Source: an uncultured Rhodospirillaceae bacterium (GTDB lineage Bacteria; Pseudomonadota; Alphaproteobacteria; GCA-2731375). Taken from it: a stretch of 64,000 nucleotides of DNA. Made by a program: the position numbers and the translations under genes. This document shows positions 7,849 through 61,474 of this stretch, piece by piece (position 1 is the stretch's first letter; every line of letters starts with the position of its first letter). Location of the stretch: positions 23,613-87,612 of the forward strand of contig CAZVYX010000007.1 of the NCBI GenBank assembly GCA_964631725.1, written 5' to 3'. The notes under the pieces are model-generated. The model searched no databases. It saw only the letters and a list, made by a program, of their open reading frames with translations, and was not told where the DNA came from.

Positions 7849-8256
7849 TCACGTCCGCGGCAGGTTATGGCCCCGGCCATCCATGGCCCGGGCCAGGCCG
7901 TCAACTATGGTTGCCCGTGTGGACCCGGCGGTGAAGATGTGCCTCACGCCCAGATCGTTCAGTTCCGCCGCCATTTCCGGCGTGATGACACCGCCGACGA
8001 CCAGGGGGATATCCAGGCCGCTGTCCCGCATCACATCCAAAATGCGTTGCGATAGATAGACCGGCTCACCGCCGAGATAGCTGACACCGACCGCGTCGGC
8101 GCCTTCTTCGCCAGCGATCTGGGCCAGGCTTTCCGGAGTGTTGTAGAGCCCGGCGTAGACCACTTCGTGGCCGGCCTCTTCCAGCCAATGCGCCACGACT
8201 GTGATGCCGTTGTCATGAGCGTCGGTGCCCACCTTGGCCAAGACAATGCGCGCCAT
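7849..8256 (-). CDS. Cobalamin-binding small subunit of a split acyl-CoA-mutase-like enzyme (paralog A)
   Basis: ..AKVGTDAHDNGITVV.. carries the DxHxxG B12 motif; ..VVGGVI.. follows. ATG at 8256 has GGGAGGGAG upstream, 14 nt after the large-subunit stop. Confidence 0.85.
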   Translation of the reverse strand: MARIVLAKVGTDAHDNGITVVAHWLEEAGHEVVYAGLYNTPESLAQIAGEEGADAVGVSYLGGEPVYLSQRILDVMRDSGLDIPLVVGGVITPEMAAELNDLGVRHIFTAGSTRATIVDGLARAMDGRGHNLPRT

Positions 8257-8270
8257 ATCGTTCTCCCTCC

Positions 8271-38339: not shown

Positions 38340-39398
38340 ATGGTCGCCGAAAACGAAGTCGAATACCCTTACGAAGATGCGGCCGAGCTGGGCCAGCCAC
38401 TGGAAGTGGCCCCCGGTGTTTTCTGGCTGCGAATGCCATTGGAATTGACCGGCCTGGATCACATCAATCTATGGTTGCTGCGCGATGGCGCGGGTTGGAG
38501 CATCGTCGACACCGGCATGAAGTCGGACCGAATTCACGAATTATTGGAAGGCGTTTTTGAAAATTTTCTCGATGGTTTGCCCATCACCAGGGTTTTCTGC
38601 ACCCACTTCCACCCCGATCATATTGGCCAGGCGGGCTGGTTGACCCGGCGCTGGAAGTGCGATTTGTGGATGACCCATCGCGAATGGTTGCAGGGCCGCG
38701 TCGCCGAACTGGACCATCACGACAAGATGCCAGATTGGCAATTGCAGTTTTTCCGCCACCTTGGCCTGTCGAAGTCGGCCCTGGGCGCAATGGCCGAAAC
38801 CCGGTACGACCATTTTCAGCAATCGGTGACAGCACTTCCGCCGCAAGTATATTCCGTGCGCGCGGGCCAGGAAATCCGCATCGGTGACGATGACTGGCAG
38901 GTCATCGTCGGGCGGGGCCATTCGCCGGAACATATGTGCCTGTTCAATCACAAAACCCGGGTGCTGATCTCCGGTGATCAGATCCTGCCCAGGATCACGC
39001 CGCATATTGGCCTGCATGCCTCGGAACCGGCGGCCAATCCCCTGCAGCTGTACCTGGATACGCTGGCCAATTTTGACCATCTGCCGGCCGATACCCTGGT
39101 CCTGCCGGCCCATGGCCTGCCGTTTTATCGGCTGCATCCGCGTCTGGCCTTTTTGCGCGAACATCATGCGCAACGATTGTCGACGCTGGAGGAATTCTGT
39201 GTCGAGCCAACCCGTGTTCTATCGACCCTGAAGGTGATGTTTCAACGGGAACTGAACCCGTTCGAGGCGCTGCTGGGCATGAGCGAGGCGCTAGCCCATC
39301 TGCACTGTCTGATGGGACAGGGCCGCATCGTCCGGGAAACCTCCGACGATGGGGTCTGGCTATATAAAGCCAGCGGCCGGCGGGCGGATGCCGCCTGA
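38340..39398 (+). CDS. MBL-fold metallo-hydrolase
   Basis: ..VFCTHFHPDHIG.. (HxHxDH) and downstream ..GHSPEH.. 352 aa. Confidence 0.8.
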   Translation: MVAENEVEYPYEDAAELGQPLEVAPGVFWLRMPLELTGLDHINLWLLRDGAGWSIVDTGMKSDRIHELLEGVFENFLDGLPITRVFCTHFHPDHIGQAGWLTRRWKCDLWMTHREWLQGRVAELDHHDKMPDWQLQFFRHLGLSKSALGAMAETRYDHFQQSVTALPPQVYSVRAGQEIRIGDDDWQVIVGRGHSPEHMCLFNHKTRVLISGDQILPRITPHIGLHASEPAANPLQLYLDTLANFDHLPADTLVLPAHGLPFYRLHPRLAFLREHHAQRLSTLEEFCVEPTRVLSTLKVMFQRELNPFEALLGMSEALAHLHCLMGQGRIVRETSDDGVWLYKASGRRADAA

Positions 39399-40299
39399 GG
39401 CGGCGCTCCTGGGGCTGGACTGGGGCACAACCAGTCTGCGCGGCTATCTGATCGGCGCGGATGGCGCTGTGCTGGCGGAAAGATCAGCCGAGGCCGGCAT
39501 CCTGCAAATCCAAAACGGCGCCTTCGCCGGGGCACTAAACGATCTGGCCGGCGATTGGCTGACCGGCAACCCCACCCTGCCCATCATCGCCTCGGGCATG
39601 ATCGGATCGCGCCAGGGCTGGGTGGAAGTGCCTTACGTGGACCTTCCGGCAAGCACCGCCAGGTTGACCCTTTATGTCCATGACGGCTTCGAACGGCCGA
39701 TCCATTTCGTCCCCGGCCTGACCAGGCGCGACGGCGGCGGCGTACCGGACGTAATCCGCGGCGAGGAAACGCAAATTATCGGCGCCGGCGGGGAGGTCTT
39801 GCAAGATGGCCTTTACCTGTTGCCGGGCAGTCACAGCAAATGGGCCGAGGTGAAGGACGGAAGCATCATCTGGTTCGCCACCTTCATGACCGGCGAACTG
39901 TTCGCGGCCCTGAAGGACCACACGATCCTGGGCCGGATGATGGCGGGAGATGCGGAAAACGAGGCCGCTTTCCGGCGCGGCGTTGAATACAGCCGAGGCG
40001 CCGGCGGCACGCTGCAACGGCTGTTCAGCGCCCGCACATTGGCGCTGTTCGGCGAACTGCCGGAAACCGGCGTGGCGGCCTATCTTTCGGGCCTGCTGAT
40101 CGGGGCGGAAATTGCCGAAGCCCGGGCCCTGGTGCAATATCCCGACAGCATGATCATGATCATCGGCAGCGCGGATCTATCGCGGCGCTATCAGACCGCC
40201 CTGTCCATATGCGCCTGGCCGGCGGACTTGGCGCCCGCCGGCGCCGCGGCGCGCGGCCATTGGCGCATTGCAGCCGCCGCCGGGCTTATATCGCGATGA
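39388..40299 (+). CDS. dgoK: 2-dehydro-3-deoxygalactonokinase
   Basis: ..LGLDWGTT.LR.., ..IRGEETQIIG.., ..PG.HSKW.., ..MTGELF.. and ..LSGLLIGAE.. parallel E. coli DgoK. ATG at 39388 overlaps the upstream gene by 11 nt. Confidence 0.8.
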   Translation: MPPEAALLGLDWGTTSLRGYLIGADGAVLAERSAEAGILQIQNGAFAGALNDLAGDWLTGNPTLPIIASGMIGSRQGWVEVPYVDLPASTARLTLYVHDGFERPIHFVPGLTRRDGGGVPDVIRGEETQIIGAGGEVLQDGLYLLPGSHSKWAEVKDGSIIWFATFMTGELFAALKDHTILGRMMAGDAENEAAFRRGVEYSRGAGGTLQRLFSARTLALFGELPETGVAAYLSGLLIGAEIAEARALVQYPDSMIMIIGSADLSRRYQTALSICAWPADLAPAGAAARGHWRIAAAAGLISR

Positions 40300-40925
40300 C
40301 AACCTTGGCAAACCATCTGGCGGAACTGCCGCTGATCGCCATTCTTCGCGGTATCCGGCCAGACGAGGCAGTGGATATCGGAGAGGTACTGTTCGCCGCC
40401 GGATTTCGCATTATCGAAGTGCCGTTGAATTCGCCGGAGCCGCTGCAGAGCATCGCCCATCTGGCATCAGCCCTTGGCGACCGGGCACTAATCGGCGCCG
40501 GCACGGTGCTCAATCCCCAGGCCGTCGATGATGTCGCCGCCGCCAACGGCCGACTGATCGTCATGCCCCATGGTGACCCATCGGTCATTGCCCGGGCCAA
40601 GACCCAGGGCCTGTACTGCCTGCCCGGCGTTGCCACCCCTACGGAGGCCTTTGCGGCGCTCGCCGCGGGCGCCGACGGTTTGAAAATGTTTCCCGGTGAA
40701 AGCCTGCCGCCCAGCGTGGTCAAGGCCTGGCGCGCGGTGCTGCCGGCCGGGCTTGGCCTGTTTCCCGTGGGCGGCATTTCGGCGGACAAGATGGCCGCAT
40801 ATTGCGCCGCCGGCGCCAGCGGTTTTGGCCTGGGATCGGCCCTTTACAAACCCGGTATGAGCGCCGGCGAAGTTAGCGACAATGCCGAAGCGTTCGTCGC
40901 CGCGTGGCGGCAGATCGGATCATGA
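40296..40925 (+). CDS. dgoA: 2-dehydro-3-deoxy-6-phosphogalactonate aldolase
   Basis: ..LPLIAILRGI.PDEA........AGF..IE.PLNSP....SI.. ..ALIGAGTVL.. ..FP.GG.. parallel E. coli DgoA. ATGA overlap with the dgoK stop. Confidence 0.8.
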   Translation: MTTLANHLAELPLIAILRGIRPDEAVDIGEVLFAAGFRIIEVPLNSPEPLQSIAHLASALGDRALIGAGTVLNPQAVDDVAAANGRLIVMPHGDPSVIARAKTQGLYCLPGVATPTEAFAALAAGADGLKMFPGESLPPSVVKAWRAVLPAGLGLFPVGGISADKMAAYCAAGASGFGLGSALYKPGMSAGEVSDNAEAFVAAWRQIGS

Positions 40926-41455
40926 AGACTACTCTGGAAACCGAGCGGTTGATCCTGCGCCCCTTCACCATGACCGACCTGGATGATCTGATCCCGATCT
41001 ATGGCGATGGGGAGGTGATGGCAATCCGTAAGCTTGGCGTGCAGACAGCGGAACAGACAGCGGCGGAGCTGTCCGGCATCGTCGATCATTGGCGGCAACA
41101 CGGTTTCGGCCTTTGGGCCGTGATCGACCGCCAGGATGATACGTTGTTGGGGGAATGCGGCCTGCGCTACCGCGATCCGGTCCTGGCCGGGGACAGTGAG
41201 ATCGAGATATCCTACGGCCTGGCGAAAAGCGCCTGGGGCCGGGGCCTGGCGACCGAGGCCAGCCTGGCCGCCATGTCCTTCGGCTTCCATGTTGCCGGCC
41301 TGACCCGGATTGTCGCGGTCGCCAAGGCCTCCAACCACGCCTCGCACCGGGTGATGGAAAAACTTGGCATGCATCCGGCGGAGACCTGGGAACGTGACGG
41401 CCTTGGCCGGGTCAAGTACACTATCGGCGCGGAAGAATTCACAACAAACCAGTAG
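40922..41455 (+). CDS. GNAT-family N-acetyltransferase (RimJ/RimL-like)
   Basis: ..LETERLILRPFT..D.. N-terminus and ..WG.G.ATEA.. motif A. ATGA overlap with the dgoA stop. Confidence 0.8.
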   Translation: MKTTLETERLILRPFTMTDLDDLIPIYGDGEVMAIRKLGVQTAEQTAAELSGIVDHWRQHGFGLWAVIDRQDDTLLGECGLRYRDPVLAGDSEIEISYGLAKSAWGRGLATEASLAAMSFGFHVAGLTRIVAVAKASNHASHRVMEKLGMHPAETWERDGLGRVKYTIGAEEFTTNQ

Positions 41456-41472
41456 TCGAGGAATACCAGCCC

Positions 41473-42081
41473 ATGAAACTCTACGACCTGCCCCCCTCCC
41501 CCAACGCCCGCAGGGTAAGGATTTTCATTGCCGAAAAAGGGCTGGAAATACCTTCCGTCGCCGTCGACATGGCCAAGGGGGAGAACAAGCAGCCGGATTA
41601 TCTGGCGAAAAACTCCCTGGGCAAGATGCCTGTTTTGGAGCTGGATGACGGCACCTGCATCGCCGAATCCGGCGCCATCTGCCGGTATCTCGAAGAAATT
41701 CATCCCGAACCGGCCTTGATGGGCACGACGCCGGTGGAGCGGGCCCAGGTCGAGATGTGGAACCGGCGCATGGAACTGGAAATCCTGCTGCCGCTGATCA
41801 ATGTCTTCGGCCATACCCACGAAATGTGGAAGGGCGTGCATACGCAAATCGCCGAATGGGGCGAGGTTTGCCGGGAAAATGCCCTGAACAGGCTGGCCTG
41901 GCTGGACGGCGAGATCGCGGGCCGGGATTACATCGTCAATGATAGCTATTCCGTCGCGGATATTACGTTGCAGTGCGGCCTGGTTCTGGGCAAGGCGGTG
42001 GGCGTCCGCGTGCCGGAGGAATTGAGCAACGTCAACGCCTGGTTCGACCGCGTCGCGGCGCGGCCTACCGCGCGGGCATAA
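41473..42081 (+). CDS. Glutathione S-transferase
   Basis: ..MKLYD...SPN.RRVRIF.AEKG.. thioredoxin-like N-domain, ..GK.PVLELDDG..I.ES.AI.RYLE.. 202 aa. Confidence 0.85.
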   Translation: MKLYDLPPSPNARRVRIFIAEKGLEIPSVAVDMAKGENKQPDYLAKNSLGKMPVLELDDGTCIAESGAICRYLEEIHPEPALMGTTPVERAQVEMWNRRMELEILLPLINVFGHTHEMWKGVHTQIAEWGEVCRENALNRLAWLDGEIAGRDYIVNDSYSVADITLQCGLVLGKAVGVRVPEELSNVNAWFDRVAARPTARA

Positions 42082-42121
42082 AGGCGCCTATAATACCGTC
42101 GCCTAATTAAGGAGACCCATC

Positions 42122-43063
42122 ATGTCTAAACCTCTGCTGAGCGGCTCGTTCGTGGCCTTGATCACGCCGATGAACCAGGATTATTCCATTGATTACGGTG
42201 GTTTTCGCACGCTGATCGAGTTCCAGCGGGAGAATGGCTCATCCGGCGTACTGATCATGGGCTCCAGCGGCGAGGTCTCCATGCTGACGACCGAGGAGCG
42301 CTACGCCATCGTCCGCGAGACCATGCAGCAGAAACAGCCGGGTATGGAAATGTGGTACGGCTGCACCGGTCCGACCACCGAGGCGACCATTGCCTATGTC
42401 AAGCAGGCCGCCGCCGAAGGCGCCGATGGCGCCATGGTCGCGGCGCCGGCCTACATCTGCGCCTCGAACGACGATATCGTCGACTATTTCCTGGAAGTGG
42501 CCGACGCCTCGACCATTCCCCTGGGCGTCTACAACAACCCGCCACGGGTGAAGACCGACCTGTCGGCCGAGGAAGTGCTGCGCATCGCGGCGCATCCGAA
42601 CGTTCAGTTGCTGAAGGAGTCCACGGGACGGGTCGCGCAAGCGGCGCAAATCGCCCGCGCCCGCCCGGAAATGAGCCTGATGTGCTGTTGCTCCCCAAAT
42701 CTTGGCCTGATCGTGCCGACCATGAGCCTGGGCGGCCACGGCACCGCCAATATGACCGGCAACATCATCCCGCGCGAGATGGCGGTGATTTCCAAGCGCT
42801 GGGAGAATTACGAGGATGCGGAGAATTTCCAGGCCGCCTACCTGCGCAACCTGCCCATGCTGCATTACGCTTATTCCGCCATCAACCCGGTGCCGATGAA
42901 GTCCCTGATGGCCGCCATGGGCATGCCGGCCGGCCCCCTGCGCAAGCCGCAAAAGCACCTCACCGGCGCGGCCCTGCAACGGGGCCTGGATGCGGTGGCG
43001 GAGTTGGGCCTGATCGACACCTATGGCTATGCGCCGATCACCAGCTTGGCGGCGGCTGAATAA
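42122..43063 (+). CDS. DapA/N-acetylneuraminate-lyase-family class I (Schiff-base) aldolase-like enzyme
   Basis: ..ALITPM.., ..GSSGE.., ..VYNNPPR.. and ..LLKESTG.. (catalytic Lys position). AAGGAG RBS. Confidence 0.8.
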   Translation: MSKPLLSGSFVALITPMNQDYSIDYGGFRTLIEFQRENGSSGVLIMGSSGEVSMLTTEERYAIVRETMQQKQPGMEMWYGCTGPTTEATIAYVKQAAAEGADGAMVAAPAYICASNDDIVDYFLEVADASTIPLGVYNNPPRVKTDLSAEEVLRIAAHPNVQLLKESTGRVAQAAQIARARPEMSLMCCCSPNLGLIVPTMSLGGHGTANMTGNIIPREMAVISKRWENYEDAENFQAAYLRNLPMLHYAYSAINPVPMKSLMAAMGMPAGPLRKPQKHLTGAALQRGLDAVAELGLIDTYGYAPITSLAAAE

Positions 43064-43072
43064 GAACAGGCC

Positions 43073-44683
43073 ATGGAGGACGGGCAGGCCAAGTCGGCCT
43101 CGGGCATCCCGCTAAAGGCCTATTATCGGCGCGCGGATGTCGAATCCGAGCAACTGGAGGCGCCGGGCCAGGCCGACTTCACCCGGGGCATATTCGCCGA
43201 GGGCTACCGGCGCCAGGCCTGGATGGAAAGTCTGGCCTGCGGCTACGGCCTGCCGGAGGAAACCAACGAACGCATCCGCTATCTGAAAAGCGTCGGGCAG
43301 GCCGGTTACGCCGGGCGGATGTCGATCAATCTGGTGTTCGACCGGCCAACTTTTTGTGGCCTGGACAGCGATCATCCCATGGCCCGCAACGAAGTCGGCA
43401 ACGTCGGCGTCGCCATCGATTGCCTTGACGACATGGCGCGCCTGTTCGATGGCTTCGATTTAGCGCAGTTGAACGCCGGTTTCATCGCCGATCGGTCGGG
43501 GCCGTTCCTGATGGCGATGTATATCGCCCTGGCCGACAAATGGGGCGTTGCCCGGGAGCAACTGCGCGGCATCGTCTGCAACAACCCGTTGACCGATTTC
43601 TTCTGCTCCAAGACGCCGATGTTCCCGCCCGGCGATAGCCTGCGCCTAATGATCGACTGCGTCGCGTTCTGCAACGCCGAAACGCCCCGCTTCAACACGA
43701 TCCGTATCAATGGCTACAACACCCGTGAACTTGGCAGCTCGTCGCTGCAGGAAGTCGGTTTCAATCTGGCCATCGCCAGGGCCATTATCAGCGCCGCCGC
43801 TGAACGGGGCCTGGAGTTGGACAAATTCGTCGCCGGCATCAATTTTCAGTTTTCCCAAGGTAGGGACTTCTTCGAGGATATTTGCAAAATTCGCGCCGCC
43901 AGACGCATGTGGAGCCGCATGCTGGAGGAGGAATTCGCCATCGCGGACGAGGCCGCCCGGCGGATGAAGATCCACATGCAGACCGCCGGCTCCTCCCTGA
44001 CGGCGCAGGAGCCCTTGAACAACATCGCCCGCATTGGCCTCCAGGTCCTCTCGGGCGCCCTGGCCGGCAGCCAGAGCATGCATATCGCCTCCTACGACGA
44101 AGCCCTGGGCATCCCCACGGAAGAGGCGGTGCGCACCGCCATCAAGACCTCGAAAATTGTCATGCATGAAACCGGCATAGACAAGGTCGCCGATCCCCTG
44201 GGCGGCTCCTACTATGTCGAGGCCTTGACCGACGAGTTGGAGCGCCGTATCGGCGCTGTCATGGCGGAAGTGGAGGCCGAAGGTGGCGTCATCGCGGCCC
44301 TGGAAAGCGGCTATTTCGAACAGCAAATCGCCAACACCGCGTATCTGGCACAAAGCGAGATCGAGCGCGGCGAACGCGTCGTGGTCGGCGTCAACGCCTA
44401 CCGCGAAGACGGCGATGTCGGCATCAACGAGATTTTCCGGCCCAACCCGGAGGCCGCGAAAACCGCCGTCGCGCGCATCAAGGCGCTAAAGACGACGCGT
44501 GACGCCGCCGCCGCCACGGCCGCCATCGACGCCATCAAGGCCGCCGCCACGATGGGCGAGGCGATGATGCCGCGCTATGTGGAAGCCGCCAAAGCCAACG
44601 TTACGCTGGGCGAAATGATCAACGCCGTCGAGGCGGTAACGGGGCAGTTCAGCCATGCCGCCATCACCGCGAATATCAGTTAG
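43073..44683 (+). CDS. Methylmalonyl-CoA-mutase-family large subunit, highly divergent paralog B
   Basis: 536 aa. ..FTRGI.., ..DSDHP....EVG.VGVAID...DM.., ..TPRFN.., ..KIRAARRMW.., ..SLTAQEPLNNIARI.., ..DPLGGSYYVE.LT.. are colinear with MCM. Starts 9 nt after the DapA-like stop. Confidence 0.8.
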   Translation: MEDGQAKSASGIPLKAYYRRADVESEQLEAPGQADFTRGIFAEGYRRQAWMESLACGYGLPEETNERIRYLKSVGQAGYAGRMSINLVFDRPTFCGLDSDHPMARNEVGNVGVAIDCLDDMARLFDGFDLAQLNAGFIADRSGPFLMAMYIALADKWGVAREQLRGIVCNNPLTDFFCSKTPMFPPGDSLRLMIDCVAFCNAETPRFNTIRINGYNTRELGSSSLQEVGFNLAIARAIISAAAERGLELDKFVAGINFQFSQGRDFFEDICKIRAARRMWSRMLEEEFAIADEAARRMKIHMQTAGSSLTAQEPLNNIARIGLQVLSGALAGSQSMHIASYDEALGIPTEEAVRTAIKTSKIVMHETGIDKVADPLGGSYYVEALTDELERRIGAVMAEVEAEGGVIAALESGYFEQQIANTAYLAQSEIERGERVVVGVNAYREDGDVGINEIFRPNPEAAKTAVARIKALKTTRDAAAATAAIDAIKAAATMGEAMMPRYVEAAKANVTLGEMINAVEAVTGQFSHAAITANIS

Positions 44684-44695
44684 AGACGTGCCGGC

Positions 44696-45100
44696 ATGAA
44701 CGACCCAGCGATCCGGGTACTGCTGGCCAAGCCAGGCCTGGACAGTCATGAAAGCGGCATCAAGATGATCGCGGCGGGCCTGCGTGACGCCGGCATGGAA
44801 GTCATTTACCTAGGCGTCTTCCAAACCTCCGACAGCATCGTTAGCACTGCCCTGGAGGAGGATGTGGACGTGATCGGCCTGAGCTATCTCTCGGGCGGCC
44901 ACCAGGGCCTGACGGCGGAGCTTATGGCAGCCCTGAAGGACGCGGGCCTGGCCCACGTCAGCGTCATTTGCGGCGGCATCATTCCCGATGACGATCACGC
45001 CGCCCTGAAAGAGATCGGCGTCAAGGGCATCTACGGACCCGGCACGCCGATGGCCGAGGTGGCAGCGGAAATCATGGGCATTGCACGGGGCACAGGGTAA
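44696..45100 (+). CDS. Cobalamin-binding small subunit (paralog B)
   Basis: ..RVLLAKPGLDSHESGIKM.. (DxHxxG), ..DV..IGLS.LSG.H.. and ..GGIIP.. 134 aa, 12 nt after the large subunit. Confidence 0.85.
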   Translation: MNDPAIRVLLAKPGLDSHESGIKMIAAGLRDAGMEVIYLGVFQTSDSIVSTALEEDVDVIGLSYLSGGHQGLTAELMAALKDAGLAHVSVICGGIIPDDDHAALKEIGVKGIYGPGTPMAEVAAEIMGIARGTG

Positions 45101-45106
45101 GCGAGA

Positions 45107-46255
45107 CTACCACAATTGATCGGAGGCGATGGCGGCGCCCTCGACCATGGCGGCCAGCTTGGCCCAGGCAATGTCGGGATCAACCGCCGGGCGCGAGGCG
45201 AAAGTGGCGAAACCGCAGTCGGAGCCGGCGATCACCCGCTCCCGCCCGACCTTGGACGCGTAGCGGCGGATCCGTTGTGCCACCAGTTTCGGATGCTCGA
45301 TGAAATTCGAGGTGGAATCGATCACGCCCGGTATGACGACCTTGCCGTCGGGCAAGGGATGTTGGTCAAAAACCTCCCATTCGTGCTCATGGCGCGGATT
45401 GGCGCCTTCCAGAGAGATGGCGTGGGGCCGGGCGCCATAGACCAGATCCAGGATATCGGCCACGTCGATGTCATGATGGTGGGGGCCTTGATAATTGCCC
45501 CAGCAAAGATGGATGCGCATCGATTCGGGCGGGATATTGGCGGTCGCGGCATTCAGAACTTCGATATGGCGGGCCGCGACCTTGCGGAATTCGGCAACGG
45601 ATTTCTTGCGGTGCACCAGGTGCCGGCCCATGGCCAAGTCCGGGCAATCAAGCTGCAGTGTGGCGCCGGAGGCAACGATCGCCTCGTACTCGTCCTTCAG
45701 AATGCCCGCCAGGGCGTCCAAATAGGCGTCGTCATCAGGATAATATTGGTTCTGCAGGAATACCGAGACCACGCCAGGGGACGAGGCGGTAAGGAAACCT
45801 TCCGTGGGGCGGTGTTTCTTTACCGCCGCCGCGAAATTGGCCAGGTCCTTTTGCAGCGGCCCATCATCGCGCACCGAGAGGGGGCCGTCGCAGGCCGGTC
45901 CCTGCAGGCTGCGTTCCGTCCCCCCCTGCTCCACCAGACGCCGTGCATAGGGCAAGAAATCGAGCAAATCAGCGGCAGCGCGGTTTTCCGTCGCCGTGCC
46001 GCCAAAGCCATCAAGCCGGTCTTTCAGATAGGTGGCATAGCTGATTTTGCTCATCTCCCCATCGCTGACCAGATCGATGCCGGTGGCGACCTGGCGGGCG
46101 ACAATGTTGTCAACCGATGTCGCGACACATTGATCAAAGTCAGCGCTGTCATAGGGTTCGCCCTGATCCTTCAGGTCCAGCATGACGATCAGGTCATCGG
46201 GACGCGGCAAGCTGCCCACATGGGTTGTCAGAATACGGTCGATGGAAGTCTTCAT
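45107..46255 (-). CDS. Cobalamin-independent methionine synthase II (MetE C-terminal domain-like) family protein
   Basis: ..ILTTHVGSLPRP.. N-terminus, ..H.CWGN...PH.. and ..GSDCGF.. motifs typical of the COG0620 family. Confidence 0.75.
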   Translation of the reverse strand: MKTSIDRILTTHVGSLPRPDDLIVMLDLKDQGEPYDSADFDQCVATSVDNIVARQVATGIDLVSDGEMSKISYATYLKDRLDGFGGTATENRAAADLLDFLPYARRLVEQGGTERSLQGPACDGPLSVRDDGPLQKDLANFAAAVKKHRPTEGFLTASSPGVVSVFLQNQYYPDDDAYLDALAGILKDEYEAIVASGATLQLDCPDLAMGRHLVHRKKSVAEFRKVAARHIEVLNAATANIPPESMRIHLCWGNYQGPHHHDIDVADILDLVYGARPHAISLEGANPRHEHEWEVFDQHPLPDGKVVIPGVIDSTSNFIEHPKLVAQRIRRYASKVGRERVIAGSDCGFATFASRPAVDPDIAWAKLAAMVEGAAIASDQLW

Positions 46256-46568
46256 GATCGCGCCGCCCCTTGCCTGGTATGCCTAGTCCGGGAAACCCGC
46301 GGCACAGGATCGCATGGCGCGCTGGCAATCGCCAGACCCCGCGCCAGCGCCAGGAATTGAATTTTGCAGAAAAATAAAGGTTTCAATTGCCATTACCTTC
46401 AATCCCTCGGTAGACTATGGGTAATAAGAAGAAAGACAGTATCGTACGCGTGTCGGAGTATAGGGTGAAAAAGGGGGGTAGACATAATGGTCCTGAAAGG
46501 ATCCTGCCAGCCGATCAGCCGAACTTTGACACATATTCCGAGTGGCTCGCAAAGGGAGGCCTTATCTA

Positions 46569-54195: not shown

Positions 54196-54956
54196 GTAAT
54201 ACGGAAGCGGGTACCGCAAATCATCACGGAATCGCCGTCCACGGCCAACGCCCGCGCATTCGCGGCGGCCAGAATGGCCGTCTTGTCGGCGGCCTTGAGA
54301 TCGACACCGCCAAGGCCTTCGCCGCGGCCATCGGTGACATCGACAAAGCGCAAGGTGGCATTGTCCAGGACGATTTCGGCGGCACCCGAAGCGCCCGTGG
54401 TCACGGGCACGTCGAGAATTTCGCCCCAGCGCGCCGCCAGGGCGCCCGGATCCGGGCTTTGCAGTTCCGCCCCGATCATGGCCGCCGTCCGCTCCACCCG
54501 CACGGCGTCGCGCCAATCCTTGCCAGCCGGGTGCCAGGGGCCGTCGGGGGCCTGATCGCCATCGGTCTGGTCATTTTCCAGCATGCAGCCGCCGGTATCG
54601 CGGGGATGCAACTGGATACCGGTGAAATCTCCATAGTTCAGGGCATTGGCAACGCGCACGCCCAACTCGCCGACGCGGGTGCGGCGCTCTTCCACGTTGT
54701 CGCACTGCAGAATGACCATGTAGCCGCAATCACCGCCCCGGCGTTCCAGATAGCGGCCGCCGGCGGTGTTCTCCTCAATCGGTGCCACCACTTCAAGGAA
54801 GTTCGTGCCCACGGGCAGCAAGGCATTTTCCAGACCGTATTTGCCCACGGCGGGGTCGTGAAAACAGGTCGCCAGACCCAAAACATCGGTCAACATATCC
54901 ACGGCCGGCGCCAATTCCTCGGCCACCAGACAGATTTGCCGCAATCGCAACATCAC
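54192..54956 (-). CDS. VOC (glyoxalase-like) family protein
   Basis: ..LRQICLVAE.L......L..VLGL.........V..YGLENALLPVG..FLEVV.P.. resembles a glyoxalase-like domain. The C-terminal half is unassigned. Confidence 0.65.
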   Translation of the reverse strand: MMLRLRQICLVAEELAPAVDMLTDVLGLATCFHDPAVGKYGLENALLPVGTNFLEVVAPIEENTAGGRYLERRGGDCGYMVILQCDNVEERRTRVGELGVRVANALNYGDFTGIQLHPRDTGGCMLENDQTDGDQAPDGPWHPAGKDWRDAVRVERTAAMIGAELQSPDPGALAARWGEILDVPVTTGASGAAEIVLDNATLRFVDVTDGRGEGLGGVDLKAADKTAILAAANARALAVDGDSVMICGTRFRIT

Positions 54957-54968
54957 ATTATCCTCCCT

Positions 54969-55943
54969 TCAAACCCCATCACCCAGCGACGTTTCTTGCA
55001 GTTGCCGCAATAGCAGCGTCGCCGCGGCATCCAGCCCAAGGTCCCCCCGTTGCACCTGGGCGCAAAGGTCATCCACATTGGCAGCGCCGACGTCGCGGAT
55101 CAATTGCCTGACACGCTGCGCCGTGGCATCGGCCAGCAGGCGGCGTACCCGTTGCAGGGCGCGGGCGGCCCGCTCCTCCGCCGTCACCGCCACGCCCTTG
55201 CGGGCCTCCACCGCATCCGCCAGGGCAACAATTCCCTCGCCCGTCGTGGCCGTGGTGGAGAGCACCGGCACTTCCGCCATCTCCGCCTCCCGCAGGGACA
55301 GCATGCTTTTCAATTGACTGACCGTACGCTCCGCCAGGGGGAGGTCGGCCTTGTTGACGACAAGAATATCGGCGATTTCCAGTATGCCGGCCTTGATCGC
55401 CTGAACGTCATCACCCAGGCCGGGAGCGCAAATGACCACGCGCACATCGGCGATTTCGGCAATCTCGACCTCCGACTGACCGGCGCCGACGGTTTCCACA
55501 ACGACAATGTCCCGGCCGGAGGCATCCATCACATCGATAACCCGCGCCGCCATCGGCGACAGCCCGCCCAGATGGCCCCGCGCGGCCAGGGAGCGGACAA
55601 ATACGCCGGGATCACGGGTGTGCTCGCTCATGCGAATGCGGTCGCCCAGAATGGCCCCGCCCGTAAGTGGTGAGGACGGGTCGACCGCGACGACCCCGAC
55701 GCTGTGTTCGCGCCGGCGCAACTCCACGATCAGGGCATTGACCAGGGTCGACTTACCGGCCCCCGGCGGACCGGTAAAGCCAACCACCAGGGCATGTCCC
55801 AAATGCGGCTGAATGCCGGCCAGCAGCTCCGCCGCCTGCGCGGTGTCATTTTCCACGGCGGTAATCGATTTCGCCAACGCGATGGCCTGCCCCGCTAGGA
55901 GACGTTGCAGCAGGCTATCCGGTTCCTTCGCTGCCGCCGCCAT
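54969..55943 (-). CDS. meaB: Methylmalonyl-CoA-mutase-associated G-protein chaperone MeaB/ArgK
   Basis: ..GFTGPPGAGKSTL.., ..VAVDPSSPLTGGAILGDRIRM.., ..VVETVGAGQSE.. and ..VVNKADL.. Confidence 0.9.
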   Translation of the reverse strand: MAAAAKEPDSLLQRLLAGQAIALAKSITAVENDTAQAAELLAGIQPHLGHALVVGFTGPPGAGKSTLVNALIVELRRREHSVGVVAVDPSSPLTGGAILGDRIRMSEHTRDPGVFVRSLAARGHLGGLSPMAARVIDVMDASGRDIVVVETVGAGQSEVEIAEIADVRVVICAPGLGDDVQAIKAGILEIADILVVNKADLPLAERTVSQLKSMLSLREAEMAEVPVLSTTATTGEGIVALADAVEARKGVAVTAEERAARALQRVRRLLADATAQRVRQLIRDVGAANVDDLCAQVQRGDLGLDAAATLLLRQLQETSLGDGV

Positions 55944-55945
55944 GA

Positions 55946-56353
55946 TCAGGCCGCCGCCCGGGCCGCACCGGCCAGGCGGGTAATTTCCTCGACAATCCGC
56001 TCCCGCGTGCTGCCCGGATGGAAAATGGCGGCGACACCGGCGGCCCGCATTCCATCAATATCCTGATCCGGTACGATACCGCCAAGCACGACCTGGACAT
56101 GTCCCAGATCGGCCTCCTTCAAGGCGGTCATTAAATCCGGCAGCAGCAAATGATCGGTGGCCAGGGACGAAACGCCGATGACATCCACGTCCTCCTGTGT
56201 CGCCAGGGCGACAACATCGGCGATTTCCTGCCAGGGGCCGGTGTAAACAACTTCCATCCCGGCATCGCGCAAATAGGCCGCGACAATCCGGCTGCCCCGG
56301 TCGTGGCCGTCGAAGCCAATCTTGGTGATAAGAACCCTGGCCGGCGCGGTCAT
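55946..56353 (-). CDS. Cobalamin-binding small subunit, canonical mutase type (paralog C, no adjacent large subunit)
   Basis: ..RVLITKIGFDGHDRGSRIVA..LRDAGMEVVYTG.. (DxHxxG), ..DVDVIGVSSL.. and ..GGIVP.. ATG at 56353. The stop is 2 nt before the meaB ATG. Confidence 0.85.
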   Translation of the reverse strand: MTAPARVLITKIGFDGHDRGSRIVAAYLRDAGMEVVYTGPWQEIADVVALATQEDVDVIGVSSLATDHLLLPDLMTALKEADLGHVQVVLGGIVPDQDIDGMRAAGVAAIFHPGSTRERIVEEITRLAGAARAAA

Positions 56354-56471
56354 GAAGTTCCGTCCCCGATCAGGGGCGCCAAAAAGACGTTTCCGATACT
56401 GCAATACATGGCAAATTTTCTAAGCAGCATGATCCGGCGAGTCAACAGGACAGTACGCCACGCCGGCGTCC

Positions 56472-56861
56472 TCAAACAATTCGCTTCCAATAGCTGTCCT
56501 TGCTGGCGATCAGGCCGTCACGGACAGTGTAGATGTCGACGCCACGGACGTCATAAGGGCTACCGTCCGCCACATAGGTCCCCGTGGCGCGGAAGGTGCC
56601 AATGATGTGGCCATCGGCATGGTGTACCGCCGTCTCGGAAAATCGGACATCGCGGACGATCTTGGCCCGCTCCGCCAAGGCCTGCTTAACCTCTTCGGCG
56701 CCATGGCGAATTCGGCCGTGGGGAGCGTCGGGACCTTGGGCCTCTACCCAGACGAAATCGTCGGTTACGCAGGCCAAAATGCCCTCCACATCGGCCCGGT
56801 TAAAGGCCTTGCCGAAGCGGCGCAAAAGATCCATCGCCGCATCTTCGGATTGGCTCATCAT
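56472..56861 (-). CDS. SnoaL-like / NTF2-family protein
   Basis: 129 aa. ..LLRRFGKAFN..D.EGILA.VTDDFVW.. and ..G.D.YTVRDGLIA.KDSYWK.. fit a SnoaL-like fold. Confidence 0.65.
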   Translation of the reverse strand: MMSQSEDAAMDLLRRFGKAFNRADVEGILACVTDDFVWVEAQGPDAPHGRIRHGAEEVKQALAERAKIVRDVRFSETAVHHADGHIIGTFRATGTYVADGSPYDVRGVDIYTVRDGLIASKDSYWKRIV

Positions 56862-56873
56862 TCAACTCCCATT

Positions 56874-57680
56874 TCAGTTCGGCCAAAGGCCGCGCTCGAT
56901 AAAAACGTCCTTCAGAACGCCGGTTTCATCACTCATGATACCATCGACGCCCAGATCCAAAAGACGTCTCATTTCCGCCGCGTCATTGATCGTCCAGACA
57001 TGTACTTTCAGGTTCCGCGCATGGGCCGCATCGATAAACCGCCCATCGACAACCGGCAGTCCATAATGGCGGAGCGGCACCTGTGCCGCCAGGGCCGTGA
57101 AGTCGGAAACAGGCAGACCGAGGCTGGCCAGACGCAGGCGCACAACTTCCCCAGGGCCCATGGAGGTGCAGAGCGAAGGCCCCAGCATGGACCGCAAGTG
57201 TTTCAGGCGCCGGCCGGAGAAACTGCCGACGCAGACCCGCGCCAGAACGTCGGGCCGGTTCAGCGCCTTTACCAAGGGCGCGACGGCGCCGTCGGCCTTG
57301 GGGTCGATATTGATCCGCAGATCCGGCCAGGTCATGAGTAATTCGTCGAACAGCGGGATCGGTTCCCGCCCGTGCACCCTGGCCTGGGCGACCTCGGCCC
57401 AATCGAGCCCGGCAATCAGGCCCTTGTGCCCCGTCACCCGGTCCAGGCGGTCATCGTGGAAAGCAACCAGAACGCCGTCGCGGGTGGCGTGAACATCGGT
57501 TTCGACATAGCCATAACCCAGGTCCACCGCATCCTGAAAAGCGGCCATGGTATTTTCCGGATAGTTGGCGGCGCTACCCCGATGGGCGATGGCCACGGGC
57601 CCGGAAGCATCCAGATAGGGGTGCCGGCTCACGAAGCCTCTATCTCCGCCCCGGTGCGATATCGATGCCGGGTGCTTCAA
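56874..57680 (-). CDS. Glycerophosphodiester phosphodiesterase (GDPD) family protein
   Basis: ..IAHRG....YPENT..AF..A...G....E.DV..T.DG.LV..HD..LDR.T.. The ORF opens with TTG at 57680; GTG at 57632 is an alternative start. Confidence 0.8.
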   Translation of the reverse strand: MKHPASISHRGGDRGFVSRHPYLDASGPVAIAHRGSAANYPENTMAAFQDAVDLGYGYVETDVHATRDGVLVAFHDDRLDRVTGHKGLIAGLDWAEVAQARVHGREPIPLFDELLMTWPDLRINIDPKADGAVAPLVKALNRPDVLARVCVGSFSGRRLKHLRSMLGPSLCTSMGPGEVVRLRLASLGLPVSDFTALAAQVPLRHYGLPVVDGRFIDAAHARNLKVHVWTINDAAEMRRLLDLGVDGIMSDETGVLKDVFIERGLWPN

Positions 57681-57760: not shown

Positions 57761-59125
57761 TCAGGCAACCGCCGCGCTGGCCGCCTCCTCCCGCTCGACG
57801 CGAAGGCGGCGCATTTCATCGGCCACCAGAGTGGGCATGGCACAGAGTTCGCAGTCGTTGGGCAGGGCCGCCGGCTCGAATGAATCAACACCGTACTTCA
57901 GACGCATCTTGGCGATCTCGCGCACATTTTCCACGAACCATTCGCCACGCGGTGGCCGCTCGCCGGCATAGGCGGTGCCTTCGACCGGGCTCCAGACCAG
58001 GGGGATCGGCGCGATACCCCGTTCGCACAGCCATTCGATGCCCTCGAAGAAGCTTTCGTGGGATTCCCGGAAACAGCCCGTGACCAGATGCGTGCTGACC
58101 TTGCCCGGCCCATAGACCTCGGCCGCGATTTCCAGCGCCTTCAGCCAATGATCCCGGCCCTGCTGTTCCGCCTTGCCCGGGCAATGCTTCTCGAACAGTT
58201 GTTCATTCCAGACTTCCAGATTATAGGCGACGGAATAGAAGCCCTGTTCCTTGTGCACCGCGATGGTATCCAGGTCCTCGGGTGCAGTGCGGATCACGTT
58301 GACGGGAATTTCATGCCGGCCCAGGGCTTCCTGCATGGCCCTGACGACGTTCAGGATCATGTCGCCCTCGCGGTCGTTGACCGTGCCGTCGCGCTTCACC
58401 GTGCGCTTCAGGAAACCGCCGGTAAGCAGAATATGGCGCACGCAGCCTTCCTCAAACGCGGCGCGGGCGGTGGCGACGATTTGATCATAGCTGCGCTTGT
58501 TGAGCTGCAGATCGTCCTTGGTCCAGCCCATGTTCGGCACGATGTTGCAAAAATCACAGCCCTTATCGTTGGCCCAGTACATACAAAACGGCGAATAGTT
58601 CAGGACCATGCAGTCCTGGCCCCGCTTTGGCGCGACGCGGCGCATGATGATGCCGGGAGAAGCCTCCATGCTGTAGTAGTTGGGCCGCGGGATATGACGC
58701 GCCTCCATGACGAACTTGCCGTCCCGTTTCAGCATCAACTGGCCATCTTCCACGGTACACAGCCAGCGCGATTGCTTGTCCTCGCGCACCTGTATGGTGG
58801 TGTCCATGGGCAGCACCAGTTCCTCGGGCAGATAGTATTCGTGCTCGCCGTGGTTCCAATCGAACAGCCAGCGGGATTGCTCACGGTAGATTTCATTGAC
58901 GCCTTCCAGGGCGGAGGGGTCGAATTGCACGCCGTCGGCCAACAGGCTGCCCTTGACCCAAATTTCCTGCTCCAGACCCTTCGCGGTGGGCGCCAGGCCG
59001 GGCTTGATGAAGGGCGCGTTCTGCCGCTGCGCGCCATGGATTTCGTCGTACCAGGTATTGTATTTGTCGTTGATATCGGCGAACGGATCCGCATCGGCGG
59101 CGGTGCTTCTGGCGATCATGTTCAT
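57761..59125 (-). CDS. Radical-SAM-like protein with non-canonical C-x8-C-x2-C motif and long N-terminal extension
   Basis: ..SPFCMYWANDKGCDFCNIV.. (nt 58547-58585) with ..HILLTGGF.. 43 residues later. ATG at 59125 has GGAGGAG 7 nt upstream, 19 nt after the GntR stop. The longer ORF (to 59299) overlaps GntR and is Arg-rich. Confidence 0.6.
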   Translation of the reverse strand: MNMIARSTAADADPFADINDKYNTWYDEIHGAQRQNAPFIKPGLAPTAKGLEQEIWVKGSLLADGVQFDPSALEGVNEIYREQSRWLFDWNHGEHEYYLPEELVLPMDTTIQVREDKQSRWLCTVEDGQLMLKRDGKFVMEARHIPRPNYYSMEASPGIIMRRVAPKRGQDCMVLNYSPFCMYWANDKGCDFCNIVPNMGWTKDDLQLNKRSYDQIVATARAAFEEGCVRHILLTGGFLKRTVKRDGTVNDREGDMILNVVRAMQEALGRHEIPVNVIRTAPEDLDTIAVHKEQGFYSVAYNLEVWNEQLFEKHCPGKAEQQGRDHWLKALEIAAEVYGPGKVSTHLVTGCFRESHESFFEGIEWLCERGIAPIPLVWSPVEGTAYAGERPPRGEWFVENVREIAKMRLKYGVDSFEPAALPNDCELCAMPTLVADEMRRLRVEREEAASAAVA

Positions 59126-59144
59126 AACATTTCTCCTCCCAAAA

Positions 59145-59897
59145 TCAGCTTTCGTCCCGCAGCGGAATCGAAGCCTGATAGCTGTAGCGGTCCCCCCGCA
59201 GGTATAGGTGCGATACCGCGACCGGCCTGCCATCGTCCGCGGTATAGACGTTCTCGACCATGAACATCGGCGCCCCGAATTCGACCTCAAGCAGTTCATT
59301 CAGGTCGCGGTCGGCGGTGGTTGCGACAACCCGTTGGTCCATGCGGGCCAGGGTGAAGGCGCAATCCTTGCGCATGACATCGACGAAACTGCGTACGCCG
59401 GACATGGTCTCATCGGCGATGAAACCAAAATCCTCAACCCTGCCAAAGTTGACGTGCAGCGATATGGTCTCGCCCTGCAGGCGGCGGATGCGCCGCATGG
59501 TCCACAGTTCGGCCTGGGCCCGGCAACTAAAAATTTCCGCCACCGCCGACGGCGCGGGCGCCGCGCCGATGCTCAGCACTTCCTGCTCAATCTCCCGGTC
59601 CTCACCGCTGGCCGTATCCAGCCATTCGGCAAAATTGCCCGACAGCTTGACCTCAATGCCCGCCGGATCGGGCCGCTTCGTCACGATGGTGCCGATGCCG
59701 CGCCGGCCCTGGACCAGGCCATCGGCCGCCAGCAGATCGATCGCCTTGCGTATGGTGATGTTGGAAACGGAAAATATCTGCTCCAGCACCACCGCCGCCG
59801 GCAGGGTCTCACCGGTGCTGTATTCACCGCTGGAAATACGACGGCGCAGGGTGTTGGCGACCTGCCGGTATTGCGGAATGGCTCCTGCGACACTCAC
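59145..59897 (-). CDS. GntR-family transcriptional regulator (HutC subfamily, UTRA effector domain)
   Basis: Winged HTH ..YRQVANTLRRRI.SGEY..G..LP....L.....VS..T.RKA...L...GL...R.G.GT.V.. with a UTRA-sized C-domain. GTG start has GGAGGA upstream. Confidence 0.85.
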   Translation of the reverse strand: MSVAGAIPQYRQVANTLRRRISSGEYSTGETLPAAVVLEQIFSVSNITIRKAIDLLAADGLVQGRRGIGTIVTKRPDPAGIEVKLSGNFAEWLDTASGEDREIEQEVLSIGAAPAPSAVAEIFSCRAQAELWTMRRIRRLQGETISLHVNFGRVEDFGFIADETMSGVRSFVDVMRKDCAFTLARMDQRVVATTADRDLNELLEVEFGAPMFMVENVYTADDGRPVAVSHLYLRGDRYSYQASIPLRDES

Positions 59898-59921: not shown

Positions 59922-61298
59922 TTATTCAAGGTCGATCATTTTGCCGGGGTTCATGATGTTTTCCGGGTCAAGAGCACGCTTGATCTGCCGCATGACTTCC
60001 ACCGCATCGCCCAGTTCCTCGACCAGGAAGTCCTTCTTGCCCAGGCCGATGCCGTGTTCGCCGGTACAGGTGCCATCCATGGCCAGGGCGCGGCGGATCA
60101 TGCGGGCGTTCAGGTCTTCCGCCTCCGCGACCTCGGCCTCGCTGTTGGGATCGATCACATAGATCAGATGAAAATTACCGTCGCCCACATGGCCCAGCAT
60201 GGGCGCCGGGAAGGAACAGCCTTCTAGCTCCTTCTGGGTCTCGACAATGCATTCGGACAGGCGGGAGAGCGGTACGCAAACATCGGTGCCCCAAAGCTCG
60301 GCGCCCTGCCGCATCGCCTTGACCGCCGGGGCGGCGTCATGACGGGCCTGCCAAAGGGCATCCCGTTTCTCCTGCTGGGTTTCCCAATTGAATTCGCCGC
60401 CGCCGAATTCCGCGACGATGGCCGAGGTCACTTCGATCTGCTCCTCGACGGACTTTGGACCGCCGTTGAATTCCATGAACAACGTCGGCTGTACGGGATA
60501 GTCAAAGCCGGAATAGTCATTGATCGCCTGTAACTGCACTTCATCGACCAGCTCAACGCGCGCTATGGGCACGCCCGCCTGTATGGTGCTGACCACGCTA
60601 TCGACGGCATCCTTGACGGAGGGGAAATTCACCACCGCCGCCGCGATGCTTTCGGGTATGGCATGCAATTGCACCGTGATCTCGGTCATCACGCCCAGGA
60701 TGCCCTCGGAGCCTACGAACAGGCGGGTCAGATCCAATCCGGCGGACGACTTCTTGGCCCGCTGGGCCGTGTTGATAACGCGGCCGTCCGGCAGGACGAC
60801 TTTGATGGCGATGACGTTGTCCTTCATGGTGCCATAGCGCACGGCATTGGTGCCGGAAGCCCGGGTCCCCGTCATGCCGCCGATGGTGGCGTCCGCGCCG
60901 GGATCCACCGGAAAAAACAAACCCGTGTCGCGAATATGCTCATTCAGTTGTTTTCGCGTCACGCCGGCCTGCACCGTGCAACTGAAATCCTCCGGATAAA
61001 CCGAGAGAATCCGGTTCATCTGTCCCATGTCCATGCAGACGCCGCCCCGCACCGCCTGAATGTGCCCCTCAACCGAAGTGCCAACGCCAAAGGGGATCAG
61101 CGGTGTCTTCGAACCCGCACAGATCTTGACGATTTCAACGACTTCCTCGGTGCTGTGGGGAAACACCACCGCATCGGGCGGCTGGGCGCCGTGCCAGAAT
61201 TCGTCCCGGCCATGCTGTTCCCGCACCGCCTCTGCCGTGCTCAGCCGCTCCGCCAAAAGATCGCCGATTGCATCGGTTACCGAAGCCGAAATTGACAT
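59922..61298 (-). CDS. FAD-linked oxidase (GlcD / D-lactate dehydrogenase-like), second copy
   Basis: ..VVFP.STEEVV.IVK.C.....P.IPFG.GTS.EG.. and C-terminal ..GT.TGEHG.G.GK... ATG at 61298 follows GGGAGAGGG. Confidence 0.85.
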   Translation of the reverse strand: MSISASVTDAIGDLLAERLSTAEAVREQHGRDEFWHGAQPPDAVVFPHSTEEVVEIVKICAGSKTPLIPFGVGTSVEGHIQAVRGGVCMDMGQMNRILSVYPEDFSCTVQAGVTRKQLNEHIRDTGLFFPVDPGADATIGGMTGTRASGTNAVRYGTMKDNVIAIKVVLPDGRVINTAQRAKKSSAGLDLTRLFVGSEGILGVMTEITVQLHAIPESIAAAVVNFPSVKDAVDSVVSTIQAGVPIARVELVDEVQLQAINDYSGFDYPVQPTLFMEFNGGPKSVEEQIEVTSAIVAEFGGGEFNWETQQEKRDALWQARHDAAPAVKAMRQGAELWGTDVCVPLSRLSECIVETQKELEGCSFPAPMLGHVGDGNFHLIYVIDPNSEAEVAEAEDLNARMIRRALAMDGTCTGEHGIGLGKKDFLVEELGDAVEVMRQIKRALDPENIMNPGKMIDLE

Positions 61299-61337
61299 CA
61301 CCCTCTCCCGTTTCAGTCCAGGCGGGACCGACCTATA

Positions 61338-61355
61338 TCGTATATATGTATACGA
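61338..61355. promoter_or_regulatory. Inverted repeat TCGTATA-tatg-TATACGA in a divergent promoter region
   Basis: 7-bp arms inside an AT-rich patch (ctatatcgtatatatgtatacgaatataataat), between the GlcD-like/GntR array and the enoyl-CoA hydratase operon. Confidence 0.35.
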
Positions 61356-61474
61356 ATATAATAATCCGGTCAACGTTTCGGTAGTTGCCGGCACGGAGGC
61401 ATGGACGCCGCCATGGTTTTGCTGGCACAGTGCCAAAAATCGAAAGCTGGAATTTTGTCAGATGGAGAGCCCAC

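Follow-up and report, generated by a model that had tools for sequence, protein, structure and literature searches.

The 64,000 nt stretch of contig CAZVYX010000007.1 from an uncultured Rhodospirillaceae bacterium analyzed here (the window, to which all coordinates without a locus label refer) encodes a split mutase that is intact, under purifying selection, and belongs to an uncharacterised, seldom encountered branch within the methylmalonyl-CoA mutase (MCM) family. Its large, substrate-binding TIM-barrel subunit (536 aa) is encoded at 43073–44683 on the plus strand, followed on the same strand by the small cobalamin-binding subunit (134 aa) at 44696–45100. We regard this pair, termed paralog B in the following, as probably a functional two-subunit adenosylcobalamin (AdoCbl)-dependent carbon-skeleton mutase of likely new acyl-CoA specificity, which was acquired as an accessory cassette. 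Directly upstream (42122–43063, plus strand) lies a gene encoding a 313 aa class I (Schiff-base) aldolase-like protein of the DapA/NAL family that matches the dihydrodipicolinate synthase (DHDPS) domain PF00701 at 1e-44. A previous sequence-only reading had described the three open reading frames (ORFs) with a 9 nt spacer between the DapA-like and the large subunit gene and a 12 nt spacer between the two subunit genes, exactly as we find them, and had proposed a meaningful coupling of aldolase and mutase, which the comparison with related genomes does not support. Loci from relatives or homologues used for comparison are labelled by an L and a number.

Family assignment and active site

By Pfam and NCBIfam, the two mutase subunits fall into the generic families for the N- and C-terminal domains of acyl-CoA mutases. 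PF01642 covers residues 8–524 of the large subunit, corresponding to profile positions 2–512 of 512 (5.5e-161) and thereby to its full length, and TIGR00641 scores 478.1 bits with a cut-off of 303.8, while the equivalog models for MCM (NF006944, 409.9 vs. a cut-off of 876) and IcmF (NF045497, 214.8 vs. 1500) remain below theirs. The small subunit is recognized by PF02310 (3.7e-23) and, above its cut-off of 57.45, by TIGR00640 (141.5 bits). It carries the sequence motifs SYLSGG, GGIIP and, at 44741–44758 (plus strand), the DSHESG variant of the DxHxxG that the sequence-only reading had noted; its closest solved relative is HcmB (4r3u_C, 1.1e-30).

The established roles of three MCM residues, the carboxylate clamp Arg207, the wedge Tyr89 and the general acid His244, allow the active site to be compared position by position. 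Residues were mapped by HMMER alignments to HcmA (4r3u) and human MCM as well as by a MAFFT alignment of 122 sequences, using invariant Gly, Tyr, Glu and FPP positions as anchors and the numbering of P. shermanii MCM for canonical positions. Both approaches assign Ser53 to the position of Arg87, Ala55 to Tyr89, Cys169 to Gln197, Ser179 to Arg207 and Asn216 to His244, so the three key exchanges and the altered QND motif that had been aligned by eye hold, and none of the canonical residues is restored. The plus-strand motifs in question are ESLACGY at 43226–43246 (canonical RQYAGF), in which Gln88 is furthermore replaced by Leu54, GIVCNNPLTDFFCSKTP at 43568–43618 (canonical GT[IV]QNDILKE[FY]..[RQ]..), with Thr195 changed to Ile, Gln197 to Cys/Thr, Asp199 to Asn and Arg207 to Ser179, and INGYNTRELG at 43706–43735 (canonical ISGYH..EAG), in which the equivalents of Tyr243 and Glu247, Y215 and E219, are kept next to Asn216. 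The insertion noticed earlier in front of the INLVFD strand is present just before barrel strand beta2 (SINLVFD), albeit with a length of six residues (AGYAGR, residues 77–82, 43301–43318, plus strand) instead of the five (AGYAG) originally counted. The residues defining MCM (Tyr/Arg/His), isobutyryl-CoA mutase (ICM, Phe/Gln/His) and 2-hydroxyisobutyryl-CoA mutase (HCM, Ile/Gln/His) are all lacking, as had been claimed. The accompanying statement that characterised mutases retain His244 holds for the enzymes covered here: all 58 homologues of canonical type have the His, and so do HcmA and human MCM.

Among the 150 columns that are invariant in canonical enzymes (at least 93% in the 58 canonical mutases), 99 are kept and 51 are changed in the clade to which paralog B belongs, and the changed columns cluster in barrel strands beta1 and beta3–beta6, which form the pocket and the channel. 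The residues contacting the cofactor and its adenosyl group are invariant throughout this clade (Y215, E219, H301, Q303, T304, Q334, S335, H337, D342, E343, A344 and D374–G378), and the large subunit retains the HxQT, QSxH, DEA and DPLGGS motifs. An AlphaFold model of the large subunit, which the sequence-only reading had suggested as a check, was built from 75 sequences with high confidence (predicted local distance difference test (pLDDT) 92.7, predicted template modelling score (pTM) 0.92) and superposes on HcmA 4r3u_A with a TM score of 0.95 and a root-mean-square deviation (rmsd) of 1.5 Å. In this model the AGYAGR insertion forms a short helix before the strand of residues 83–89, at a pLDDT of about 88–91. 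The MCM mutant structures Y89F (5req) and H244A (1e1c) were among the structures compared.

For both subunits, HcmAB from Aquincola tertiaricarbonis (PDB 4r3u) gives the best match in sequence and fold. It is likewise split into a large subunit of about 540–560 aa and a small one of about 135 aa, and HcmA matches the large subunit at 3.1e-110 with 37.7% identity; in both proteins a Lys follows the position equivalent to Arg207. HcmA, however, features Ile90, Gln208, Asp117 and the His, whereas paralog B displays Ala55, Ser179, Val88 and Asn216 and does not carry the HCM signature. Compared to HcmA it furthermore contains the additional six residues before beta2, differs in strands beta3, beta5 and beta6, and falls outside the Phe/Gln/His and Ile/Gln/His group. 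MCM (P. shermanii MutB, 1req; human MMUT, 2xij) shares the Pfam and TIGR domains, the fold (TM score 0.94), the cofactor-contact motifs and the company of MeaB chaperone genes, which also accompany relatives of paralog B. The MCM enzymes are, on the other hand, only 30–33% identical (32.6% for human MCM) and fused to their B12 domain, whereas paralog B is split and has Tyr89, Arg207 and His244 all replaced. Split Phe/Gln/His homologues of the ICM type, with about 42–44% identity, count among the closest canonical relatives but differ from the Ala/Ser/Asn pattern, as does IcmF, which is more distant (170 bits, TM score 0.87, rmsd 5.9 Å).

Phylogeny, selection and distribution

We refer to the sequences with Ala55, Ser179 and Asn216 at the Tyr89, Arg207 and His244 positions as the ASN clade. 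In a neighbour-joining tree all 62 of 62 insertion-bearing sequences are monophyletic and separate from the Tyr/Arg/His (MCM-type) and Phe/Gln/His (ICM-type) sequences, HcmA and human MUT, and the insertion-bearing superclade appears to be sister to the sampled MCM-, ICM- and HCM-type enzymes. The insertion at the AGYAGR position is common to the whole superclade, which also contains subclades with the triads ASS, AAN, IGD, VSN and VDN; its G81 and R82 are invariant in the ASN clade. The unusual residues stay the same in all of the 27 closest homologue clusters (58–72% identity to the query), and A55, S53, N86, V88, D140, R141, N170, N171, S179, K180 and N216 do not vary across the clade. As the specificity residues match none of the MCM, ICM and HCM types and the protein branches outside them, a substrate other than those of these three enzymes is likely, in line with the earlier proposal.

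The genes show no sign of decay, which had been named as an observation that would overturn the prediction. Compared to its 92%-identical orthologue in L008, the closest relative, the large subunit gene displays a ratio of nonsynonymous to synonymous substitution rates (dN/dS) of 0.096 at a dS of 0.44, while the small subunit reaches 0.17 at a dS of about 0.45 and the DapA-like gene 0.057.

Among 5.8 billion proteins the ASN clade accounts for about 28 clusters (at 90% identity), and it is carried by about 8 of 185,579 species genomes; a cultured carrier is Ferrovibrio sp. It contributes a single 50%-identity representative (968 bits, the next one scoring 616) to the 4,193 family representatives retrieved at E≤1e-30, and tblastn of 72,556 plasmids gave no match above 42% identity. 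Mutase lineages of non-canonical type are in general not rare: of the 150 representatives that lie nearest to the profile, 46 are Tyr/Arg/His, 6 Phe/Gln/His and 1 Ile/Gln/His sequences, about 90 carry another or an incompletely aligned triad, and 23 of the 150 have Asn at the His244 position. A full-text search of the published literature returned no account of a mutase that is of the A/S/N type or bears the insertion, and none of a pairing of DapA with a mutase. New acyl-CoA mutase classes were reportedly predicted by Jost et al. in 2015, and the ASN clade may already figure there.

Origin of the mutase cassette

The two mutase genes sit, together with the 9 nt, 12 nt and short 3′ spacers, between the stop codon of the DapA-like gene and that of an intact MetE-like gene in convergent orientation, which occupies 45107–46255 with its end at 45107. 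Synteny with three relatives extends over genes for MBL, DgoK, KDPG aldolase and GNAT proteins, with or without GST, up to the DapA-like gene. In these relatives the DapA-like proteins are 87% (L079), 90% (L084/L085) and 91% (L082/L083) identical to that of the window, yet their stop codons abut the next gene without a mutase in between. By blastn, window positions 42122–43063 correspond to 7001–7942 of L079 and window positions 45104–46256 to 7943–9095, a pattern repeated in L084 and L085. Because the flanks are contiguous in L079 and L084, positions 43064–45103 (plus strand) of the window represent a clean 2,040 bp indel that contains the two mutase genes and no others. Of the relatives, only L008, the closest one with a 95%-identical DapA-like protein, shares this cassette with the window. 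Although the protein database includes relatives with 81–91%-identical DapA-like genes, none of its mutases falls between 72% and 90% identity to the query; the cassette-less relatives therefore do not carry the mutase gene elsewhere. A single gain by the lineage of the window and L008 is the parsimonious reading.

The DapA-like protein itself retains its catalytic residues, including the Schiff-base lysine K165 in LLKESTG and Y137/R142 in VYNNPPR, both as described in the sequence-only reading, and the Tyr107 equivalent. Of the DapA reference residues Lys161, Tyr133, Arg138, Tyr107 and Thr44, the first four are represented, and Ser/Ser stand in place of Thr44/45. The protein scores below the cut-off of the dapA equivalog model TIGR00674 (167.9 vs. 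206.15), is only about 33% identical to solved DHDPS structures, and is addressed here as a family member only. Proteins of this family are common: more than 120 clusters reach 66–91% identity and are mostly found without a mutase nearby, and homologues with 85% and 71% identity are located in unrelated gene contexts. Apart from L008, none of the 78 mutase loci examined has a DapA-like gene, and the gene tables of the clade loci L086 and L087 contain no DHDPS-family gene. The DapA-like gene would hence be an older neighbour instead of a conserved partner, and the aldolase-like enzyme would stand outside the mutase pathway. Since the cassette landed beside this gene recently, the pairing is uninformative on function.

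A promoter and terminator scan revealed nothing above shuffled expectation and no such signal between the DapA-like and the mutase genes, and an Rfam scan of the whole window detected neither a cobalamin riboswitch nor any other match. The cassette is probably now read through from the transcription unit of the DapA-like gene in the manner of an operon capture.

Several other differences were observed around this site. A GST gene (41473–42081, within the region 41420–42121 upstream of the DapA-like gene) is found in the window, L082 and L084 and is absent from L079 (6851–7000), and L008 encodes a TPR protein in its place (1–1434). Downstream of the DapA-like gene, L082/L083 contain a luciferase-like gene in place of the MetE-like gene. 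The MetE-like gene of L008 (4419–5638) is split into two ORFs of 306 and 100 aa, with tblastn high-scoring segment pairs joining at about 5340, which is due to a frameshift or else to an error in assembly. The listed ORFs for the MBL, DgoK and KDPG aldolase proteins (38340–40925) overlap by 50 and 91 nt, and the KDPG aldolase is called with 209 aa in L079 compared to 238 aa in the window; judging from the overlaps and the shorter call, the true starts of these ORFs probably lie downstream of the first possible start codon.

Neighbourhoods of related mutases

Nine of the ten informative, independent clade neighbourhoods contain enzymes that form or process acyl-CoA compounds, often together with MeaB. 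These contexts comprise PhyH with two AMP-ligases, an acyl-CoA dehydrogenase (ACAD) and a 3-hydroxyacyl-CoA dehydrogenase; TetR, MeaB, an enoyl-CoA hydratase (ECH), an NMO-like flavoenzyme, ACAD, a hydrolase, AtuA and an ABC importer with AMP-ligase; a CoA-transferase with a second mutase; NMO with two HGD-D proteins, ACAD, thiolase-like/DUF35 and a second mutase; NMO with MeaB; and ACAD with an AMP-ligase, an ABC importer and a further mutase. A locus of the sister subclade encodes MeaB, thiolase and an AMP-ligase. MeaB directly adjoins the clade mutase in L003/L011, L007, L010 and L087, whereas ccr, epimerase or other genes of the ethylmalonyl-CoA pathway did not occur in any of the clade neighbourhoods examined. 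Taken together, the acyl-CoA enzymes around clade members point to an organic acid that is catabolised in the form of its CoA ester, which counts against a non-CoA substrate and leaves the earlier suggestion that the substrate may not be a simple acyl-CoA weak at best, even though the pocket is remodelled.

The NMO-family (PF03060) flavoenzyme accompanies the clade in five independent contexts (L003/L004/L011, L007, L087, L010 and L006/L012), and three contexts share AtuA, TetR and an ABC importer with an AMP-ligase of the fused type; these genes are the best leads to the pathway. A second MCM-family mutase is encoded beside clade or sister-clade mutases in L012 (6578–8383), L016 (10231–11970), L006 (1–1433), L086 (13891 to the end, a partial gene) and L015 (3508–5190). 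Those with a signature read (L012, L016, L006 and L015) are non-canonical as well, e.g. RRELCGYGS...DGYNIRENG or PRGYCGFGT...GSYEYRENG, and their repeated occurrence suggests that the pathways involve at least two B12-dependent rearrangements.

In the window, a gene for a MeaB-type G-protein chaperone of AdoCbl mutases (54969–55943, minus strand, PF03308 3.5e-84) lies 10 kb downstream of the cassette, in a block (54954–56879) that is also absent from L079. Its product is 55–63% identical to MeaB proteins encoded next to mutases in other loci and is a candidate helper of paralog B and/or of a second mutase in the window, paralog A.

Proposed reaction and alternative explanations

By analogy to the family, the small subunit would bind AdoCbl in the base-off/His-on form through DSHESG, and substrate binding in the barrel of the large subunit would trigger Co−C homolysis. 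The resulting 5′-deoxyadenosyl radical would then abstract a substrate hydrogen, followed by 1,2-migration of the thioester carbonyl group and return of the hydrogen. An acyl-CoA is the most likely substrate, with an acyl group unlike methylmalonyl, isobutyryl and 2-hydroxyisobutyryl. Judging from the residues, the pocket would lack the carboxylate clamp due to the exchange of Arg207 for Ser and would be larger and polar, lined by Ala, Asn, Ser, Thr and Cys, and Asn216 could hydrogen-bond the carbonyl group without being able to protonate it. As a weak guess, the acyl group may be uncharged and possibly polar or of a bulkier, branched type.

Several points weigh against a CoA-dependent mutase gained as a cassette. 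The changed positions include Met78, Thr85, Arg87, Ser114, Ser164, Thr166, Thr195, Gln197 and Ser285, which line the CoA channel in the P. shermanii MCM structures, so that CoA binding by the large subunit is inferred from the neighbourhood context, and no CoA ligase or transferase gene lies beside the cassette in the window. The tree carries no bootstrap support, and the comparison with known specificities covers the MCM, ICM/IcmF and HCM types. Concerning the acquisition, GC content and GC content at third codon positions (GC3) of the cassette match those of the flanks and give no independent sign of transfer, and loss from three relatives instead of one gain is possible, though less parsimonious.

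A more radical reading, which we consider very improbable, is an enzyme that, with a rebuilt barrel channel and a new insertion on the side where CoA enters, no longer uses CoA thioesters but rearranges a free acid of the 2-oxo or hydroxy type, or else a thioester on a carrier protein, and was recruited behind the DapA-like aldolase to form a new aldolase-mutase route. In the variant directly coupled to the aldolase, the mutase would rearrange a 2-oxo or other free acid made or cleaved by the DapA-like enzyme, with the oxo-carboxyl group migrating instead of the thioester carbonyl. Such a function could explain the 9 nt spacing on the same strand without promoter or terminator signals in between, the purifying selection on both the DapA-like and the mutase genes, the strong remodelling of barrel-lining and CoA-channel positions, and the missing CoA-activating enzyme next to the cassette. 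We nevertheless give it very little credit: in L079, L084/L085 and L082/L083 the DapA-like gene is found at the corresponding syntenic position with no mutase, the pairing is shared by L008 only, and the 71–85%-identical DapA-like homologues reside in unrelated contexts. Ten other clade loci contain no DapA-like gene, and nearly all of them encode acyl-CoA enzymes, often with MeaB.

It is likewise unlikely, if clearly less so, that paralog B has an already characterised specificity and is an ethylmalonyl-, pivalyl/isovaleryl-, (R)-specific hydroxyisobutyryl- or hexylmalonyl-CoA (MatB/ActD) mutase and therefore not new. In favour of this reading, a small residue in place of Tyr89 suits bulkier acyl groups, pivalyl for example; against it, the loss of the Arg207 clamp would speak against alkylmalonyl substrates. 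The hexylmalonyl-CoA mutases MatB/MatQ and ActD, which act in the biosynthesis of the matlystatin and actinonin warheads, are reportedly split, similar to the HCM subclass and equipped with many distant relatives (PMC5719088). They resemble paralog B in being split, and their bulkier, non-classical substrate illustrates that the range of the family exceeds the textbook set (PMC5719088). MatB and ActD, which we compared by description only, are however encoded together with crotonyl-CoA carboxylase/reductase and epimerase in actinomycete clusters, whereas the clade neighbourhoods lack these genes and those of the ethylmalonyl-CoA pathway. Furthermore, the best solved relative of paralog B is only 37.7% identical, IcmF, which is also active on pivalyl-CoA, is much more distant, and the clade signature and insertion define a deep branch of their own.

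Least credible of all is a decaying or non-catalytic paralogue under relaxed constraint after duplication or transfer. The replacement of three residues important for MCM catalysis and the lack of dedicated pathway genes beside the cassette in this genome would agree with it, but dN/dS stays at 0.096 over a dS of 0.44, the residues found instead are in turn invariant throughout a clade 58–72% identical to the query, the cofactor and adenosyl contact motifs including DxHxxG are kept, and the confident model displays a closed-barrel fold.

A broader view, which we hold to be slightly favoured over its opposite, is that the whole insertion-bearing superclade represents a second, unexplored radiation of acyl-CoA mutases, in which each subclade would act on a new branched-acid substrate in conjunction with AtuA, reductases of the NMO-like type and additional mutases that are non-canonical.

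Further B12-related genes in the window

The window encodes a second non-canonical split mutase, paralog A, at 7849–10567 on the minus strand, with a large subunit (8271–9911) and a small subunit (7849–8259), accompanied by a TetR gene (9908–10567). It is 36% identical to paralog B, does not contain the six-residue insertion and branches alone in the tree. Its motifs read RRQQSGFG, GTIMNCAMTQLVGPTYQANTHFFP (with a four-residue insertion) and LNAYNIRECG, which puts Gln, Ala and Asn at the Tyr89, Arg207 and His244 positions. We also considered paralog A as the partner mutase seen beside clade members elsewhere and rejected this, as the loci compared contain no orthologue and the best match reaches 42%.

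The MeaB gene is part of a minus-strand operon (54969–56861) with genes for a SnoaL-like protein (56472–56861) and a third B12-binding small subunit (55946–56404, 152 aa), without a large subunit. In L064–L066 a homologous small subunit (70–74% identical) and MeaB (62–64%) flank a large subunit, whose counterpart for the operon described here would be either missing or encoded elsewhere. A further block absent from L079 (57634–61459) encodes a 512 aa protein with a weak radical-SAM match (57761–59299, minus strand) and an FAD-linked oxidase (59922–61436, minus strand). Relative to its relatives the region is a patchwork of accessory insertions, made up of this block and the two B12-related indels.

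Conclusion

To our knowledge, the characterised acyl-CoA mutase specificities amount to only a handful, namely methylmalonyl, isobutyryl, pivalyl, ethylmalonyl, 2-hydroxyisobutyryl and hexylmalonyl, and each new one has so far opened a pathway or an engineering route to branched or quaternary carbon skeletons. Paralog B is a genuine candidate for catalysing a new reaction among the B12 mutases, yet one of many uncharacterised lineages, and its linkage to the aldolase is explained away: the 9 nt spacing arose by cassette insertion and is not a sign of shared function, which calls for caution in annotation. The ASN clade bears on the question of how Co−C homolysis and the 1,2-shift are catalyzed without the His244 general acid and the Tyr89 wedge. 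The recurring NMO-like flavoenzyme, MeaB, AtuA, the CoA ligase fused to an ABC importer and the second, non-canonical mutases outline an uncharacterised catabolic pathway that is testable in Ferrovibrio.

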